DNA of 64,000 nt, from the sequence record MN850584.1. One strand, 5' to 3'. Numbering within the stretch: the first letter of the stretch is position 1; the number at the start of each line of letters is the position of its first letter. Below the pieces are notes generated by a model. It was not told where the DNA came from. It made no database searches and saw nothing but the letters and a program-made list of their open reading frames with translations. Of this stretch, positions 24,510 through 50,002 are shown piece by piece. This DNA is from Escherichia phage arall. A program made the position numbers and the translations under genes.

Positions 24510-25112
24510 TTATTCGTTGTTAAATGAATCCAGTGTACGTACTTCTGGTTCTTTGGGAATGAAAACGTCTTTTACAAAGCGGAACATAGGGAAACGTTCT
24601 GCCATTTTACGGACGTGTGCTTCTTTACCTGTGTATCGGTGATTAATAGTGCAAATATTAGTTTTCAATGCAAATTCAAAATCTGGATGATATACATAAT
24701 TTTGACCATCCCAGTAACACAGGCAAATAGCTACGTCAAAGTTCCATACGATTTCACTGCGTACACCCTCTTCCATGATCATAAAGTTAAACTTAAGATC
24801 TTTATAGTATGCTTCAAATACCCATTTCAAATGTGGTAGTTCGGCATAAGTGTGTTCTGTTTGCTTAGTGAGTTGTTTAACATTACGTGCACCAACACCC
24901 AACATCAAAAACTTCTCTACTAGCACGAGTGTATTATGGTTAGGCATACGCAAGTAAATGTCAATGTCTTGTGCAGGTTTCTCTAATCGCCAATCACGTA
25001 CAGCGCCGCCAGCTACAATTGCAAACGGATCTACCAGTTGGCACATACGTAATACTTCTAAAGCGCGTACTTTTTGATCTTCAATATTCATATTTTCTCC
25101 TATCGTGTCCAC
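24510..25112 (-). CDS. pol-beta superfamily nucleotidyltransferase, CCA-adding/poly(A) polymerase head-domain-like
   Basis: 200 aa; IVAGGAVRDWRLEKPAQDIDIY matches the GGxVRD…DxD motif of the CCA/PAP head domain. Confidence 0.5.
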   Translation of the reverse strand: MDTIGENMNIEDQKVRALEVLRMCQLVDPFAIVAGGAVRDWRLEKPAQDIDIYLRMPNHNTLVLVEKFLMLGVGARNVKQLTKQTEHTYAELPHLKWVFEAYYKDLKFNFMIMEEGVRSEIVWNFDVAICLCYWDGQNYVYHPDFEFALKTNICTINHRYTGKEAHVRKMAERFPMFRFVKDVFIPKEPEVRTLDSFNNE

Positions 25113-25696
25113 TCTTTATGTTGTTCTACATGCTCAAGCATTTCATTATACAGTGCTTTAAGATGTGGAACAACTCTTTCATCTTCAGTTTCAAAGAATT
25201 TTGTAAGCTGCTCTGCCTTAGCTTTCAACCAGCAAAGATGCGCTTCAATTTCAGTATTAAAACGTCCCAGCGTTTTCATGCGATCATCTACTTTTATATT
25301 GGCTTTGTATTTATTACGATCTTTTTCGTAACTACAGCCTACCATAGTTCCATGAGATCTTTTACTTACTCTATAAGCTAAGAACTTATTAAGATCTCCT
25401 GTTACTAAAAGACAGGTATCGGGAGAGTAAACCCTCCCTCCTATAATATCTTTATCAAGTTCTAAGTTTTCCCAGTTTTCCCAAGTTTGCAACCAGGAGT
25501 AGAAATTTGAGAACAGTTTCCATTCTTCACAAACCGTCACCCCCTTATAACAAGGATCACGTTCTTGTTGGCAAGGGGAGTAACACCTCCCCAGCATAGC
25601 CATCCATTTCATATAATGCGGCGTTAGTTTCTTACTACCAGGTAGCGTACTCTCGCCTTGCAAATCATTAATACCTTCACCATATACGGTAAGCAT
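25100..25696 (-). CDS. free-standing homing endonuclease-like protein (AP2 DNA-binding domain type)
   Basis: 198 aa; N-terminal MKWMAMLGRCYSP…YKGVTVCEEWKLFSNFYSW and C-terminal GCSYEKDRNKYKANIKVDDRMKTLGRFNTEIEA (AP2-like) typical of phage HNH/AP2 endonucleases; abuts polymerase gene. Confidence 0.5.
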   Translation of the reverse strand: MLTVYGEGINDLQGESTLPGSKKLTPHYMKWMAMLGRCYSPCQQERDPCYKGVTVCEEWKLFSNFYSWLQTWENWENLELDKDIIGGRVYSPDTCLLVTGDLNKFLAYRVSKRSHGTMVGCSYEKDRNKYKANIKVDDRMKTLGRFNTEIEAHLCWLKAKAEQLTKFFETEDERVVPHLKALYNEMLEHVEQHKEWTR

Positions 25697-25723
25697 AAAA
25701 ACTCCTTTAAAATCAAAGAGATG

Positions 25724-28303
25724 TCAGTGACAACTGGCCCATGAGTTACCAACATCGTAACCAGCAGTGAGAGGTACATTAAGATTGTAATACTCACCAG
25801 CTTTATTAACAGCGATAGATGCTAATTCTCCAGCACGACTGTAGGCTGTAAACCAACCACCTTTCGGAGATTCATGTACGTTAGCCCAAATCTTGCCAGT
25901 ACGTTTCTCTTCCTCTTCTTTCCAGGCATTAACTTTATCCAAACATTCTTTATCAATTTTCTTTTGTTCTTCTGGATCATCAACTTGAGTCCAACCTAAA
26001 GATTCTTTAGAGAACCATTTAAAATGCACCAGATCACGAGTTACTTCAAGCTGTGCTTCATCGTGATATGCAATCATTTGTTGAACGAATGACTTATTTT
26101 TCCAGTCATCAACAAAAAAGTCAACAGCTAATCCTTCTTCTTCGATAAGATCGTCGTAGATAACCATTGCTCTTTTTGCACAAATAACACCACCACTCTG
26201 GAACAGAGAGTTAAGTATTGCGTGTGCAGATCGTGTAGGTACTTTCCTACCATCAATACCCAGAATGTATTTCTTACCTGTTTTAACCCAGAAATCATGC
26301 AGACGTTCTTTAAGAAGTGCAAGAGGTTTTGCAGCTTCCCAGAAAGCATCGTATACAAGCTGTCCTGTATACATATCACTACCAATAGTTTTTGCTACTT
26401 TTGCAGCTTGAGCACCATAAGTAATGCCATACTTAACAGATTTAGCAGGGCTTCGTTCAAACTTGCGACCAATAGTGTCAGAAATACGTCGAGCCATCAT
26501 TGTATGAACATCATTAGGTTTTTCCAACAATAGAGCATTACAATATTCGTGTGGTTCCTGCTCGTACCGCCAACAGTAGTGTGATTCTATTTTTGCCTCA
26601 AGAGAATCAAAGTCATAACCAATTTGGAAGTATTTTGGAACTTCTACACCAAATAAGTTACGCATTTCATATCCGTACAGAGATGTTACACGTGGGATAT
26701 TTGCTACTAACCTATGTTTCATACGAGACGTAGCTGCATCACACGTTGCAGCAGGAGTTGGTATACGACCATCAGCCCTTACTGCCGCCAGATAACCTTT
26801 ATCGTAATCCTCTTCATCTTCTTCCCAATCAGCACCACCACCTAGAATAGAGTTTCTACGATGTTTATACGTAAGATACTGCACAATCTGCGTAGCATAA
26901 GGAAACTTTTCACCCAGTGCTTCCAGGTTAGGACAAATATCTTTCTCTTGCCCTTTTGTAAAGGAAGGGTTAGTAAGCACTTTAACACCACGACCTTTAG
27001 CTTTAGCAATACGATCTCTTAGTTTCCATTCCAAAGTTTCTGGTGTGCACTCCAGATGATCACATCTATCCTGGCAGAAGTTAGATGCTAATGTTTGATC
27101 AACATAGTCACGAATAGCTTTCTCCATTTGTGCTTCATCTTTCTTAATCTTAGTGCCAGATTTAAGAGTGATATCTTTATCTTTATATTCAGATGGACTC
27201 CAACCTAAACCAACTAACCAATTTTTAATATGTGTAGTGTCGTCTAAAGTAGCAGGTACTGTAGGATCACAAATAGGTTCTTCTGCTGGAATAGGGAGTT
27301 TAAACTCTTTACCTAATGCAAATAACCACCAACCATCTTCTTTTTGTACAAGTTCACCAGAATGTTTCTCTGCAAACTTTATCATGTTACTTGAAGGTTC
27401 ACCATTCTTTTTAAACTGTAGTTTAGGTGGAATGAATGATTTCAAATAACCTTTAGTAGCAGGTTTAGGAGGTAGCACAGGTTCTGCCTCTAAACGACAT
27501 GCTTCCATTCGAGCATCCAGATCACGAATATTATCTTCTGCTTGTTTCATATTGAAAGCAAAGCCACGGTGTTCTTGACGTGTAATAATATCAGCTACAC
27601 GTTGTTCTAAGTTAAATGGTTCAGACCACTTATTATAATCACCCCACTCTTCCATCAAATAACGGAACACTGCGGTGTTAGCTTTGTTATCGTAAATACA
27701 GTAATACAGCATATCTGCTGCAAATGTTCTAAATCTTTCAGCTTCAGGAATGTTTTTTCTAAAATCAATTTTAACATCCCCTCCAGCTTTCTTAGATAAC
27801 TCTGCCAGACTATGACCACCGAAGCGATCAGGGTTTAGTGTCTTACTTAAGATCATAGTATCACAAATTTCAATGTTACTATTACCCCAAGTATTGTACT
27901 TGATACTGTAGTTGAGTTTAAAAAATAATTTAATTGCCAGTAAGTCGAAGTTAATGATGTTGTGTCCAACTACTTTGGTAATTTTATAGTTTGAATTACC
28001 TTTAAATTTACCTGTTCCATTTACAAAATCAGGAAAATCTTTAAGAGGGAAATGGGTATATTCTAAATGCTCATATTCCTCCAGTCGGTATTCATACTTT
28101 CCGTCAGTCTCAATATACGGACGACCATCGAAAAGATATTTATCACCATCATGGAAAGCAATAATCTCTCCAGTATCATGACTTTCGCACACAATACAGT
28201 GCATTGCAAAACTATCTTTTAAACGATATGGACTTGCCAAGTAATCTACACTTTCGTCATTAAGCAAGTTGTTACTTTCAATGTCGAAAGTAAAAGCTCC
28301 CAT
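25724..28303 (-). CDS. DNA polymerase, family A, with 3'-5' exonuclease domain
   Basis: 859 aa; Exo I FDIESNN near N-terminus; motif B-like RSPAKSVKYGITYGA; motif C YHDEAQLEV. Confidence 0.8.
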   Translation of the reverse strand: MGAFTFDIESNNLLNDESVDYLASPYRLKDSFAMHCIVCESHDTGEIIAFHDGDKYLFDGRPYIETDGKYEYRLEEYEHLEYTHFPLKDFPDFVNGTGKFKGNSNYKITKVVGHNIINFDLLAIKLFFKLNYSIKYNTWGNSNIEICDTMILSKTLNPDRFGGHSLAELSKKAGGDVKIDFRKNIPEAERFRTFAADMLYYCIYDNKANTAVFRYLMEEWGDYNKWSEPFNLEQRVADIITRQEHRGFAFNMKQAEDNIRDLDARMEACRLEAEPVLPPKPATKGYLKSFIPPKLQFKKNGEPSSNMIKFAEKHSGELVQKEDGWWLFALGKEFKLPIPAEEPICDPTVPATLDDTTHIKNWLVGLGWSPSEYKDKDITLKSGTKIKKDEAQMEKAIRDYVDQTLASNFCQDRCDHLECTPETLEWKLRDRIAKAKGRGVKVLTNPSFTKGQEKDICPNLEALGEKFPYATQIVQYLTYKHRRNSILGGGADWEEDEEDYDKGYLAAVRADGRIPTPAATCDAATSRMKHRLVANIPRVTSLYGYEMRNLFGVEVPKYFQIGYDFDSLEAKIESHYCWRYEQEPHEYCNALLLEKPNDVHTMMARRISDTIGRKFERSPAKSVKYGITYGAQAAKVAKTIGSDMYTGQLVYDAFWEAAKPLALLKERLHDFWVKTGKKYILGIDGRKVPTRSAHAILNSLFQSGGVICAKRAMVIYDDLIEEEGLAVDFFVDDWKNKSFVQQMIAYHDEAQLEVTRDLVHFKWFSKESLGWTQVDDPEEQKKIDKECLDKVNAWKEEEEKRTGKIWANVHESPKGGWFTAYSRAGELASIAVNKAGEYYNLNVPLTAGYDVGNSWASCH

Positions 28304-46966: not shown

Positions 46967-47437
46967 TTAGTCAGATTCCCAAATGTTGTCTTTCTTAACC
47001 CACATTCGTTGATTATCTGAACCTCTATAACGTTTCGTTGTTGGTTGATTCATATCATACTTACCATCTATCACTATGTCAACCAGTTTTTTAATTTTCT
47101 CTGGAATTTCTTCAAAAAGATATCCTGTATATAAGACAATATCTTTTTTGTTTCCAAAACAATCTCTTACCTTCTCAAGAACATACTCTACAGTGTCAAT
47201 GTTCTCTTTGTCAAGAGGTTCACCACCTAAAACTGTTAATCCTTTAATGAAAGGTCGAGATAAATCTTCCAAGATAAGATCTAATGTTTCAGCAGTGAAC
47301 TCTTGTCCGTAGTTATACGACCAGGCTTTCTGGTTAAAGCAGCCACGGCAACCGTGGCTACAACCGCTCACCCACAAAGAGCATCTTACACCGTCACCGT
47401 TGAGCATGTCAACAGGTTCATATCCGGCGTAATTCAA
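46967..47437 (-). CDS. nrdG: anaerobic ribonucleotide reductase activating protein
   Basis: 156 aa; radical-SAM cluster motif CSHGCRGC (CxxxCxxC); overlaps nrdD stop. Confidence 0.75.
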   Translation of the reverse strand: MNYAGYEPVDMLNGDGVRCSLWVSGCSHGCRGCFNQKAWSYNYGQEFTAETLDLILEDLSRPFIKGLTVLGGEPLDKENIDTVEYVLEKVRDCFGNKKDIVLYTGYLFEEIPEKIKKLVDIVIDGKYDMNQPTTKRYRGSDNQRMWVKKDNIWESD

Positions 47438-48375
47438 AAGTGTTTCTCCCTTTCTAGTACCTCTTGCATTTTACCTTTATTATAAGGGCGAGAGTTAGGG
47501 GCAGAAAGGTATCCTGACACTCTTCTGATCACAGATATGGATTCTTCTTCGTGATTACCGCAACTTGGACACTCGAAGCCTTTAGCTGTTGCCTTAAATT
47601 CACCATGAAAACCACATTTGAAACACTGATCTACAGGTTGGTTCACGCCAAAATAAGGGATTTTGTTGTAGGCATAATCTACAAGAGTTTCCAGTGCTTG
47701 CAAGTTATTTTTAAGGTTCGGTGTTTCTACATAACCTATGTTCCCACCATTACTAATTTGTGCAAAACCTTCCTCATAATCCCACTTTTGGAACGGGGTA
47801 GTGTGCATCCATACAGGTTGATGGAAAGAGTTTGTCAAGTAGTCACGATCAATAGAGCCAGGATAGCGATCATTTAACGCTTTGGCAAATTTATAGCACA
47901 AGGATTCTGCTGGTGTTCCATACAAACTAAAAGCTAAACCAGAACGTTCTTTAAATGTGCAACAGATATCCTTCATATATTGAAGGATGTTTTTACCCAT
48001 TGCTTTTGGATTGGTGTTACCTGGGTATAAAATCTCCATAGCTTCTGCTAAACCTACATAACCGATACTAATAGAGGCATAACCACCTTCGAATAGCTTA
48101 CCAATCTCTTCATTAGCTTCTAGTCGAGCTAAAGCCCCTTCCATAAACAATGTAGGGTTTTGAGATGCTTTGGTATGTCTAATACGGTTAACACGTAGCA
48201 TATGTGCCTTATACGCCATCTCCATATGTTGTTCCAACAGTTCAGTAAATAAGATGCCCTTTTCACGGGACTCTGCTGCAATGATAGGTAAGTTTAAAGA
48301 AACTACGCCTAAGTTGAAACGACCATCATATTTTTCACCTTGCTCTGTTGCATAGTATGACAAGAAACTTCTACA
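47434..48375 (-). CDS. nrdD: anaerobic ribonucleoside-triphosphate reductase, exon 2
   Basis: Begins CRSFLSYYATEQGEKYDGRFNLGVVSLNLP; C-terminal glycyl-radical region RRVSGYL and Zn ribbon CFKC…CPSC; the ORF-track start (GTG at 48405) is intron read-through; junction approximate. Confidence 0.7.
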   Translation of the reverse strand, partial: CRSFLSYYATEQGEKYDGRFNLGVVSLNLPIIAAESREKGILFTELLEQHMEMAYKAHMLRVNRIRHTKASQNPTLFMEGALARLEANEEIGKLFEGGYASISIGYVGLAEAMEILYPGNTNPKAMGKNILQYMKDICCTFKERSGLAFSLYGTPAESLCYKFAKALNDRYPGSIDRDYLTNSFHQPVWMHTTPFQKWDYEEGFAQISNGGNIGYVETPNLKNNLQALETLVDYAYNKIPYFGVNQPVDQCFKCGFHGEFKATAKGFECPSCGNHEEESISVIRRVSGYLSAPNSRPYNKGKMQEVLEREKHF

Positions 48376-49144
48376 CATTATGTTCAAAGTGGCTCGCAAG
48401 GCCACTCCCGCACCATTACGTGCTGCTGCATGTCACCATGCAGATCAGACTATATCTTCATGCTTAAAGCATGTCTACCATTTGGGGTGTCATAGGCTTA
48501 CACCCTACGCTGCTACATTCATCACAGCTAGTCGTTAGGCATTTCGTAACAGAACTCATAATCATAATTATTTGGTGCTCCGCGCTTTAAGATTGCAGAT
48601 ATTCTTTTTCTGTCCAACCCTAAAGCGTCAGCACAACATCTCAGACTTTTAAAGTAAAAAACTTCACCAGTAGCCTTATGAGTAGCTTTTACACTGTGAC
48701 ACCTTGTGTAGAAAGCATAACAGTTATTATCGTAACCCTCTTGCGTGTTGTCTGGACAAGATCCCCACTCAAGATTGTATACACTGTTGTCTTTCCTATT
48801 GTCACCTTTATGCTTCACATAAGGTAAATTGTCTGGATTGGGTAAAAACGCTTCAGCTACAAGTCTGTGCACCCGAAAGCAAACAGTTTTCTTGTTTTTA
48901 CGTATTCTGACAAGTTGGTATCCTGTGTTTATTTCTTCCCACGAGCGAAGGATTCTTTCATCCTTATACCTGGTACAATAAACATTTCCAAGCTCGTCAA
49001 TTTCATACCCTTCAAAATCACGAATTTGTTTTCTCATACCAGTACCCCCTTCTTCTGTGTTGGGAGTTCTGTTACGTTTAGCACGGGATTGTCTCGTTGA
49101 GAGTTCCCCCGTTTAGGCAGATTTTACATGAGCAGTTATAGTTT
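48376..49144 (-). mobile_element. group I intron interrupting nrdD
   Basis: 769 nt between …ATGGGT (exon ends in U) and TGT…; ends in G; contains P/Q-like pair (CUAAACGGGGGAAC / AAUCCCGUGC) 5' of the endonuclease ORF and R/S-like elements (CCUAACGACUAGC / GAAGAUAUAGUC) 3' of it. Confidence 0.65.
48528..49037 (-). CDS. intron-encoded HNH homing endonuclease
   Basis: 169 aa; FEGYEIDELGNVYCTRYKD…YQLVRI…VHRLVAEAF…KHKGDNRKDNSVYNLEW typical of HNH_3-type homing endonucleases; stop codon falls inside the R element. Confidence 0.65.
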   Translation of the reverse strand: MRKQIRDFEGYEIDELGNVYCTRYKDERILRSWEEINTGYQLVRIRKNKKTVCFRVHRLVAEAFLPNPDNLPYVKHKGDNRKDNSVYNLEWGSCPDNTQEGYDNNCYAFYTRCHSVKATHKATGEVFYFKSLRCCADALGLDRKRISAILKRGAPNNYDYEFCYEMPND

Positions 49145-50002
49145 ACCCATGCTTGTGACGCGACCATCTGAAGATCCTGTAACTTCTTTGTTTAAAGGTA
49201 CAGAGATAAAATCAGGATAAATGCGTTCAGCACAACACTCCATTGCCAGTTGCTTCAAATCATAGTTTGGATCGCCAGCTTTCATGTTAACACCATCTTC
49301 CAAGAAGAAGATAACTTTAGGAAACACAGGAGTTACCCTATCTTTTCCTAATCCTTGTTTGTGCACCATTAGGTAGTTTTTAGTGATCATTCTACCAAAA
49401 GCAGAGGTATCCAAACCTAAACTAATTGTTATAAAAGGTGACTGACCATTTACACTCATTAGAGTGTTCACCTGGTAGATTAAAGTTTGCATTGCATCAT
49501 AGACCTGTTTATCTACCATACGCATAGCAATATCATAATCGCCAACATCGGCATATATTTTATTAAAACTTGCTTTAACGTATTGACTAAGCCCAGTATC
49601 AACATGTGCACAAGTTTGTCCACCATATTGGCTAGAAGCTACTGCTTGAATAATTTGAGTTAGGACAGTAGTCGCTACACCGATAGATTTTGGTTTTTCA
49701 ATATGTGCATTACCAATACGGAAACCGTTCTCAAGCATATCTTGGTAATTTACCAGGCAACAATTAGTTAAAGGTGAGAGTAAATAATCTAAATCGTGAA
49801 TGTGACCATACCCACTTTTATGCCATTCTGCCAGATCTTCCGGTAAAATATGGGTCATTGCCATGTGCTTGCTTAGGATACCTGCTAGTAAGTCTCGGTG
49901 AGTATTAACAATCATTGCAGGTTTGTTTGCATTTTCACGAGTAAATTCTTCGGATGTTTGTTCGAGGAATCCGATTACATCCTCATATAGTTTTTGGGTC
50001 AT
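49145..50002 (-). CDS. nrdD: anaerobic ribonucleoside-triphosphate reductase, exon 1
   Basis: N-terminal NrdD portion ending …DGRVTSMG; the last two ORF-track codons (KL*) are intron-derived; GGAGG RBS. Confidence 0.7.

Follow-up and report, generated by a model that had tools for sequence, protein, structure and literature searches.

The 64,000-nucleotide stretch of Escherichia phage arall analyzed here (sequence record MN850584.1; hereafter the window) comes from a phi92-like coliphage of the genus Justusliebigvirus, subfamily Stephanstirmvirinae. An open reading frame (ORF) of 198 amino acids is positioned in the spacer between the genes for a family A DNA polymerase and a nucleotidyltransferase. 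On balance, the ORF appears to be a free-standing, selfish gene of the homing endonuclease type that belongs to the IPA-HNH family. Its product has two parts, an N-terminal domain that might be a nuclease module and a C-terminal AP2 DNA-binding fold. The features of the region that are used below are listed first, from the polymerase gene downstream.

25724..28303, minus strand: family A DNA polymerase gene, 859 amino acids in a single frame (Pfam DNA_pol_A, E 3e-13; phrog_17, E 2.7e-111)
25733..25747, minus strand: hot spot of polymorphism within the 8 codons that end the polymerase gene; it lies 37-51 nt upstream of the ATG of the ORF (polymorphism counts, haplotypes)
25702..25709, minus strand: ribosome-binding site of the ORF, AAAGGAG (read from the sequence; kept in gene-bearing and remnant-bearing relatives)
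25100..25696, minus strand: complete ORF, 198 amino acids, ATG start (ORF list, phrog_953, BLASTP to ICP1 Gp209, substitution ratios, AlphaFold2)
25349..25696, minus strand: N-terminal domain, residues 1-116, a helical part with the signature W..M..RC..Y.GV.V..W..F..F..W followed by a beta-beta-alpha unit
25379..25465, minus strand: candidate active-site unit, residues 78-106 (predicted secondary structure, invariant columns in 75 sequences)
25193..25348, minus strand: AP2-type DNA-binding domain, residues 117-168, with three strands (121-124, 129-136, 139-146) and a helix (149-168)
25271..25324, minus strand: variable cassette in the AP2 domain, residues 125-142, a beta-hairpin (allele comparison, 18 gene-bearing phages)
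25103..25192, minus strand: C-terminal helical tail, residues 169-198, with an AlphaFold2 helix at 176-191
25097..25102, minus strand: junction with the next gene, where the TAG stop codon of the ORF (25100-25102) overlaps an AGGAG ribosome-binding site (25097-25101) (sequence, RefSeq annotation, junction alignment)

Family membership and structure of the protein

The ORF is assigned to the IPA-HNH family because it is directly homologous to Gp209 of Vibrio phage ICP1 and combines a divergent N-terminal domain with an AP2 domain. The ICP1 match, a gene 'previously called GP209', has 33% identity to the ORF product over 178 residues (BLASTP, E 9e-24) and contains the same LDKD...Y.P..C...N motif. 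Barth, Dunham & Seed (2023; PMC10448857) gave the name 'IPA-HNH' to homing endonuclease genes of ICP1 encoding Gp59, Gp115/116 and Gp209. The N-terminal domains of these proteins are too divergent for the Pfam HNH_3 model, although HHsearch matches were reported for them, and their C-terminal domains are of the AP2 type. Genes of the IPA-HNH type show enrichment in Barbaviruses, 29% of 431 of them adjoin DNA polymerase genes, and the family has been described as one of putative homing endonucleases by which boundaries of recombination close to polymerase genes are marked (PMC10448857). A preliminary description of the window, made from its letters only, had likened the ORF to phage homing endonucleases, and the published proposal for the family, whose genes often flank DNA polymerase genes, agrees with that view. 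This exact gene is not among the entries of the portion of the supplementary tables of Barth et al. that was searched.

Relatives of the ORF are widespread. They were found by tblastn in 1,566 phage records, including ICP1 and the Rheinheimera Barba phages, and the homolog in Barba21A (Barbavirus) is located directly after the polymerase gene. In a set of 1.84 billion proteins, a profile of the N-terminal domain matches 32,707 cluster representatives at E<=1e-3; a threshold of E<=1e-30 leaves 1,527. This very large, phage-associated domain family appears to be without a curated Pfam-A model.

The C-terminal half of the protein has an AP2 DNA-binding fold. The predicted structure contains the three-stranded antiparallel sheet packed on one helix, and the family profile matches AP2/ERF chains in the Protein Data Bank (PDB) at E-values of 7.7e-5 to 0.03. 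The protein of the window on its own has no match to Pfam AP2 (PF00847); its homologs score 17-32 bits against a cut-off of 33.3 bits, with E-values down to 2e-7. Thus the AP2-like block noted in the preliminary description is borne out when the family is searched, whereas with the single protein Pfam recovers neither an AP2 nor an HNH domain.

The N-terminal half is a separate domain, predicted with confidence. Predicted alone, it folds with a pLDDT (predicted local distance difference test) of 92.2 into several helices, a strand (78-81), a loop, a second strand (96-99) and a helix (100-106). The sequence pattern by which the ORF had originally been recognized is present, as M34..R37-C38, Y50-K-G-V53, W59 and F65. 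The candidate active-site unit carries D81-K82-D83 on its first strand, Y90 in the loop, as part of a YSPxTC motif that includes C95, and N103 in the helix. Nine residues (W31, Y50, F65, D81, K82, D83, Y90, C95 and N103) are invariant across 75 diverse sequences, and the order Lys-then-Tyr is found in 200 of 201 motif-bearing homologs. In more distant relatives the Lys is replaced by Arg, the motif reading DRID...Y.P.NCRW. A walk outward from one distant homolog, P0120, led only to further Lys and Arg variants carrying other DNA-binding modules, and to no relative with the canonical His or with an HNH match in Pfam. In its relatives the same N-terminal domain is fused to NUMOD1, to an I-HmuI NUMOD-like module, to helix-turn-helix domains, to CapR zinc ribbons or to AP2. 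Such fusion to the usual DNA-binding modules of homing endonucleases supports a role of the domain as the nuclease module.

The loop tyrosine invites comparison with the restriction endonuclease PacI (PDB 3m7k/3ldy; His-Me finger group 20). PacI is a His-Me-finger enzyme that lacks the catalytic His and uses a tyrosine from the inter-strand loop in its place. Those His-Me-finger groups in which both residues are missing are considered to be binders without activity (Jablonska et al. 2017, PMC5714182). PacI is also at the top of a Foldseek comparison of the N-terminal domain with the PDB, at a non-significant E-value of 2.8. A PacI-like, histidine-less beta-beta-alpha site in this domain is plausible but unproven.

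The ORF is a real, intact gene under purifying selection. Its full-length reading frame is intact in 28 records. The whole-gene ratio of nonsynonymous to synonymous changes per site (pN/pS) is 0-0.25 in 21 pairwise comparisons of seven alleles; against the allele of Phapecoctavirus phiWec179, pS is 0.43 and pN is 0.066. Furthermore, AlphaFold2 with a 75-sequence alignment predicts the fold of the complete protein with a pLDDT of 93.6 and a pTM (predicted template modeling score) of 0.86.

Position, distribution and mosaicism of the gene

The ORF has its own ribosome-binding site, with AGGAG at 25702-25706, 5 nt ahead of the ATG and within the 27-nt spacer that follows the polymerase stop codon (25724-25726). 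No intron or other RNA was matched by Rfam between 24000 and 28500. The gene is therefore free-standing, as had been proposed. The neighboring polymerase gene is likewise uninterrupted in the window. Replication genes surround the ORF: those for a primase/helicase, the polymerase, the nucleotidyltransferase (phrog_1614, E 1.8e-34), which lies downstream, and a putative single-stranded-DNA-binding protein, the last being so annotated only in related genomes. A scan around the ORF found promoter and terminator signals at chance level only. Since no above-chance signal separates the neighbors, the ORF is probably co-transcribed with the polymerase operon.

The reported 13-nt overlap with the nucleotidyltransferase gene appears to be an artefact of the choice of start codon. 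It exists only if translation of that gene starts at GTG 25112. RefSeq places the start in phi92 and PHB05 at the ATG equivalent to 25091, behind the AGGAG at 25097-25101. As read from the alignment, the phi92 junction has a stop codon in frame upstream of this conserved ATG, and the GTG is not conserved. If the conserved start is used, the overlap disappears, and the stop codon of the ORF lies inside the ribosome-binding site of the next gene instead.

The gene is found in about half of the Justusliebigvirus genomes that are otherwise 96-98% identical. The 2.5 kb around the ORF are 96-98.8% identical to phi92-like coliphages, W22 and vB_EcoM_PHB05 being the closest. This 2.5-kb query is covered in full by 28 Justusliebigvirus records; many others cover 79% of it, in two pieces. 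A search with the phi92 junction found about 27 records with the phi92-type junction, in which a spacer of about 137 nt holds a frame-broken remnant of the 3' end of the gene. The phi92-type junction keeps the ribosome-binding site, the ATG and an approximately 88-nt remnant, which corresponds to the last ~88 nt of the gene plus the stop codon and Shine-Dalgarno sequence (roughly 25092-25179). By our count, the phi92 remnant is roughly 70-75% identical to the 3' end of the gene, with two 1-nt indels. In phage outra, an independent in-frame internal deletion has left an ORF of 40 amino acids.

In the sister genus Phapecoctavirus the gene is present in about 10 of roughly 65 records, the gene-less ones, phAPEC8 apart, being judged only by a coverage of 66%. 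In phages nieznany and phiWec179 it is positioned directly after the polymerase gene. Phage phAPEC8, the sole gene-less Phapecoctavirus genome that was read, has a clean empty site, a 49-nt spacer with a GC-rich hairpin, AAGGGGCTTCTGCCCCTTT, followed by T's. The hairpin (GGGGCTTCTGCCCC; L029, about 690-740) is found exactly at the position that the gene occupies in nieznany. It might serve as a terminator, or it might be the site of original insertion or the target site. Judged by the junctions of gene-less relatives, the gene behaves as a dispensable element that is mobile or decaying, with remnants in Justusliebigvirus and a clean site in phAPEC8. This pattern of gain, fixation, decay and loss is as expected of a selfish, dispensable gene.

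Among 18 gene-bearing phages, the amino acid differences cluster in residues 125-142, the AP2 beta-hairpin. There are two main types of this cassette, ..ANIKV.. in 10 phages, including the window, and ..AHIQR.. in the other 8. Between the types, the cassette is changed at 6-8.5 of its approximately 10.5 synonymous sites and at 7.5-9 of its approximately 43.5 nonsynonymous sites, compared to 8-14 of 108 synonymous and 2-3 of 432 nonsynonymous sites in the rest of the gene. Because synonymous and nonsynonymous changes both pile up in the hairpin, a recombinational swap of the cassette is indicated. Positive selection on the hairpin was considered and rejected, since the synonymous sites there are saturated too. 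The first ~27 codons (about 80-110 nt) also occur in two versions, MLTVYG.. and MVYG... Apparently, both the DNA-binding hairpin and the beginning of the gene have been swapped by recombination.

A second concentration of variation is found upstream of the gene. There are 23 polymorphic sites in the 100 nt from 25700 to 25799, compared to about 5-6 per 100 nt elsewhere in the flanks. The last 8 codons of the polymerase gene occur as three balanced haplotypes, A (AAC..GCC AGT, as in the window), B (AGT..TCA ACT) and C (AAC..GCG TCT). Haplotypes A and C encode an identical peptide, the change from GCC AGT to GCG TCT being synonymous. The Ser codon of the hot spot is the only one in 582 codons of 25 phages that flips between AGY and TCN (AGT in 10, ACT in 7, TCT in 8). 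The same position reads GCA TCC in phAPEC8 and GCG AGC in nieznany. The hot spot is a candidate recognition or target region, or else a recombination boundary. It also provides the only hint in favor of the earlier proposal that the gene targets the polymerase alleles of competing phages.

The two regions of variation are associated with each other. In the gene-bearing phages, the ANIKV cassette is paired with haplotype A (7 phages) or B (3 phages) and never with C; AHIQR is paired with C (6 phages) or B (2 phages) and never with A. The normalised mutual information with cassette type reaches 0.48-0.73 at 25734-25736; across the genes on either side it is at most 0.32, and the N-terminal block in between gives about 0.03. 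This association is a lead. Downstream of the ORF, in the 5' part of the nucleotidyltransferase gene (24912..24996, minus strand), an 85-nt patch with about 8 linked single-nucleotide polymorphisms is found only in PHB05, AMO3598 and PD06 among the 18 phages. Lying 100-190 nt downstream of the ORF, the patch resembles a short tract of recombination. The hot spot at the 3' end of the polymerase gene and the 24912-24996 patch are indirect signs relevant to co-conversion of the flanks.

The proposed homing function and its alternatives

As a homing endonuclease gene, the ORF would function as follows. With its AP2 domain the product would recognize a specific sequence close to the 3' end of the polymerase gene, or in the spacer downstream, in the genome of a co-infecting phage that either has no copy of the gene or has a different allele. 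The gene product, probably made from the polymerase operon transcript, would then cut or nick nearby with its N-terminal domain, using a one-metal beta-beta-alpha site in which the usual histidine might be replaced by Y90 of the loop, aided by K82, in the way known from PacI. Repair by recombination with the genome that bears the gene would copy it together with adjacent markers. After fixation the gene would decay, as is observed in phi92-type genomes.

Several results weigh against this interpretation, the first of them concerning the nuclease. The first strand of the candidate unit reads L-E-L-D81-K82-D83, so that K82, or Arg in distant relatives, occupies the place where the catalytic His was expected. 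A Pfam search of the protein at E<=1, HNH models included, gave no match; NCBIfam gave only noise, nothing relevant; and phmmer found no match among PDB sequences. A profile of the N-terminal domain has only chance matches in the PDB (deoxycytidine kinase, E ~0.3), and the precomputed Pfam annotation assigns an HNH domain to 0 of about 240 homologs. When the N-domain family was compared by hhalign with a 50-sequence I-HmuI/HNH_3 alignment, the probability was 0.13 and the E-value 0.45, and the aligned piece lay outside the active site. Finally, the literature searched contains no nuclease assay for any IPA-HNH member, the only paper that uses the name being computational.

The other adverse points concern homing itself. 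Haplotypes A, B and C are present in gene-bearing and gene-lacking phages alike and are not associated with the presence of the gene. Ordinary linkage across the roughly 430 nt between the sites can account for the pairing of cassettes with haplotypes, and the 18 phages are related and thus not independent. Recent homing within Justusliebigvirus is undemonstrated because the 'empty' allele there is an old deletion.

Two other results bear on the same questions. The HHsearch matches to HNH that Barth et al. reported for the ICP1 proteins were not reproduced by the searches made here. Between gene-bearing and gene-lacking phages, no fixed differences were found in the flanks outside the remnant. 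A model in which gene-bearing phages have a resistant site and gene-lacking phages a sensitive one was rejected, since the polymerase-end haplotypes occur in both groups; for the same reason the haplotypes do not simply mark resistance.

The HNH assignment made in the preliminary description therefore fails in every profile test run, and an invariant Lys is found where the catalytic His should be. For these two reasons, nuclease activity is something we infer rather than a finding. The ORF falls into phrog_953, 'HNH endonuclease' (E 7.8e-74), and labels of this kind come only from PHROG family names and RefSeq product names; the 'HNH' in the name of the ORF is a label, not a result. The invariant D81, D83 and N103 are candidates for the Asp/Asn metal ligands of an HNH site. 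The spacing of 22 between D81 and N103 equals that between D74 and N96 of I-HmuI in an alignment made by hand, the register of which is unsupported by hhalign. As hhalign detects no similarity, the alignment of D81-K82...N103 onto D74-H75...N96 is a conjecture. Overall, the observations of the preliminary description were confirmed in part and its interpretation is partly supported.

The alternative that survives best, a real if doubtful possibility, is that the protein is a sequence-specific DNA binder without nuclease activity, derived from a homing endonuclease and no longer promoting its own transfer. It might regulate its own gene or the operon by binding at the 3' end of the polymerase gene, just ahead of its own start, or it might silence genes of competitors or of the host; CapR, the CasPRs and Smad MH1 provide precedents. 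The absence of the catalytic His, with Lys or Arg in its place, and the lack of any HNH profile match are what such a protein would display, and it is documented that His-Me-finger groups in which the catalytic residue is missing bind DNA (Smad MH1; PMC5714182). Phage proteins that combine CapR with AP2 (CasPRs) act purely as transcriptional silencers (bioRxiv 10.64898/2026.02.23.707548), and CapR domains occur in some homologs of the ORF. The tight packing of the operon, with the stop codon of the ORF inside the next gene's ribosome-binding site, is also in keeping with a regulator, and the covariation of the AP2 hairpin with a site 37-51 nt upstream of the ORF's own ATG fits an operator equally well as a target. 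However, the strict invariance of D81, K82, D83, Y90 and N103 in very divergent sequences resembles an active site rather than a scaffold, and the invariant loop tyrosine is exactly the residue with which PacI replaces the His. A needed regulator is, moreover, disfavored by the patchy presence of the gene, which has been deleted independently and repeatedly and has decayed in about half of the relatives. Homing endonuclease genes typically have such a position, adjacent to the polymerase gene in phage groups that are unrelated.

Alternatively, the protein could be an active nuclease with a main role other than homing, such as excluding or degrading the DNA of a co-infecting phage or of the host, or processing DNA for replication or recombination, in which case the patchy distribution would reflect the turnover of accessory genes. 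The surrounding replication genes and the purifying selection on the ORF are compatible with such a role. So are the polymerase-end haplotypes, unrelated as they are to gene presence, and the 'empty' allele of Justusliebigvirus, which as an old deletion gives no clean evidence that homing took place recently. This explanation is nevertheless distinctly unlikely. Free-standing homing endonuclease genes are matched both in architecture, a nuclease-type module joined to AP2, and in family context; about half of the phages, although otherwise 96-98% identical, do without the gene; and the swapping of the recognition hairpin suggests shifting sequence specificity, not housekeeping. The suggestion that the ORF is a non-functional relic or a chance reading frame, for which the decayed remnants at the same place in relatives might be cited, is very improbable and already contradicted by the selection and homology data: 28 records have the complete frame, pN/pS stays far under 1 even in comparison with an allele that has diverged by 14%, the predicted fold is confident and there are thousands of homologs.

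The interpretation as a homing endonuclease gene can be extended to a more specific proposal, which is speculative and, taken as a whole, rather improbable. The N-terminal domain would be an active, histidine-less nuclease of the PacI type with Y90 and K82 chemistry, forming the core of the family of 32,707 representatives that lacks a Pfam model. Its specificity would co-evolve with the target, the swapped ANIKV and AHIQR hairpins being paired non-randomly with the tri-allelic site in the last polymerase codons. Each allele would thereby leave its own genome intact and attack another. If this were true, a standing three-way polymorphism would be kept up by nuclease-target conflict.

Related systems and other observations

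The closest known counterparts of the ORF are the IPA-HNH genes of ICP1 (Gp59, Gp115/116, Gp209), Barbavirus and Flaumdravirus, which have the same two-part build and the same habit of adjoining polymerase genes. The ORF, however, belongs to a different phage lineage, the Stephanstirmvirinae coliphages. Beyond the published description of the family, the family-wide absence of the catalytic His is here made explicit, and the population data on remnants, on cassette swaps and on the hot spot at the polymerase end concern this locus specifically. Canonical HNH(HNN)-AP2 endonucleases, such as I-HmuI (HNH_3; PDB 1u3e; Magnani et al. 2004) and those of Xanthomonas phage HNN-AP2 genes (PMC2248197), also combine an N-terminal nuclease module with a C-terminal AP2 domain, and their genes are likewise free-standing, patchy and prone to degeneration. 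Unlike in the I-HmuI type, the canonical D-H...N...N is replaced in the ORF by D-K-D...Y...N, and the N-terminal domains have no detectable profile similarity.

The seg and mob genes of T4-type phages and F-CphI resemble the ORF in their position between conserved essential genes, their sporadic presence in close relatives and the polymorphism hot spot alongside. T4-type free-standing genes are expected to cut near, but not at, their insertion point and to co-convert flanking markers, and the same would be expected of the ORF. They belong to other catalytic families (GIY-YIG, canonical HNH, Endo VII), and cleavage and marker exclusion have been demonstrated experimentally for them, whereas the corresponding activities of the ORF are presumed.

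The gene is routine in kind, as near-identical phages carry copies named 'HNH endonuclease' in RefSeq. It is of significance, though, that this label rests on no detectable HNH signature and that the catalytic His is missing family-wide, so that thousands of 'HNH' annotations are unverified. The proteins of the family are either a PacI-like tyrosine variant or no nucleases at all. The phi92-like phages, which are easily grown and crossed, offer a test bed in which full, deleted and decayed alleles occur naturally alongside two types of DNA-binding cassette and three haplotypes of the flank. The locus would gain in importance if either the histidine-less chemistry or the covariation of cassette and target proved true.

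The window contains no paralogs of the ORF, and its sole other endonuclease-like match is a canonical HNH_3 gene in nrdD. The nrdD gene, encoding the anaerobic ribonucleotide reductase, is in two pieces (49136..50002 and 47434..48405, minus strand; region 47434..50002). Between them lie an I-HmuI-like HNH_3 endonuclease ORF (48528..49037), which matches the I-HmuI family profile at E 1.4e-36, and, at 48426..48533, a match to a group I intron with 39.3 bits (E 9e-8), which is under the gathering score of 50. The insert is probably an intron-borne homing endonuclease.

Four records labeled 'Campylobacter phage' (A150, A145, C3 and A110a; MG065639, MG065645, MG065656 and MG065689), with Campylobacter jejuni given as host, are 99% identical to phi92 in the region of the ORF. 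The host labels are probably wrong or the samples contaminated.

The polymerase gene is 2580 nt long in the window, compared to 3315 nt in phi92, UAB_1, SD2, PaulScherrer, PD114, PD06 and ESCO32. The extra 735 nt are annotated as an intein in PaulScherrer (corresponding coordinates, L018 4067-4801 and L001 4230-7544). The presence of this intein is independent of that of the adjacent endonuclease-like gene.

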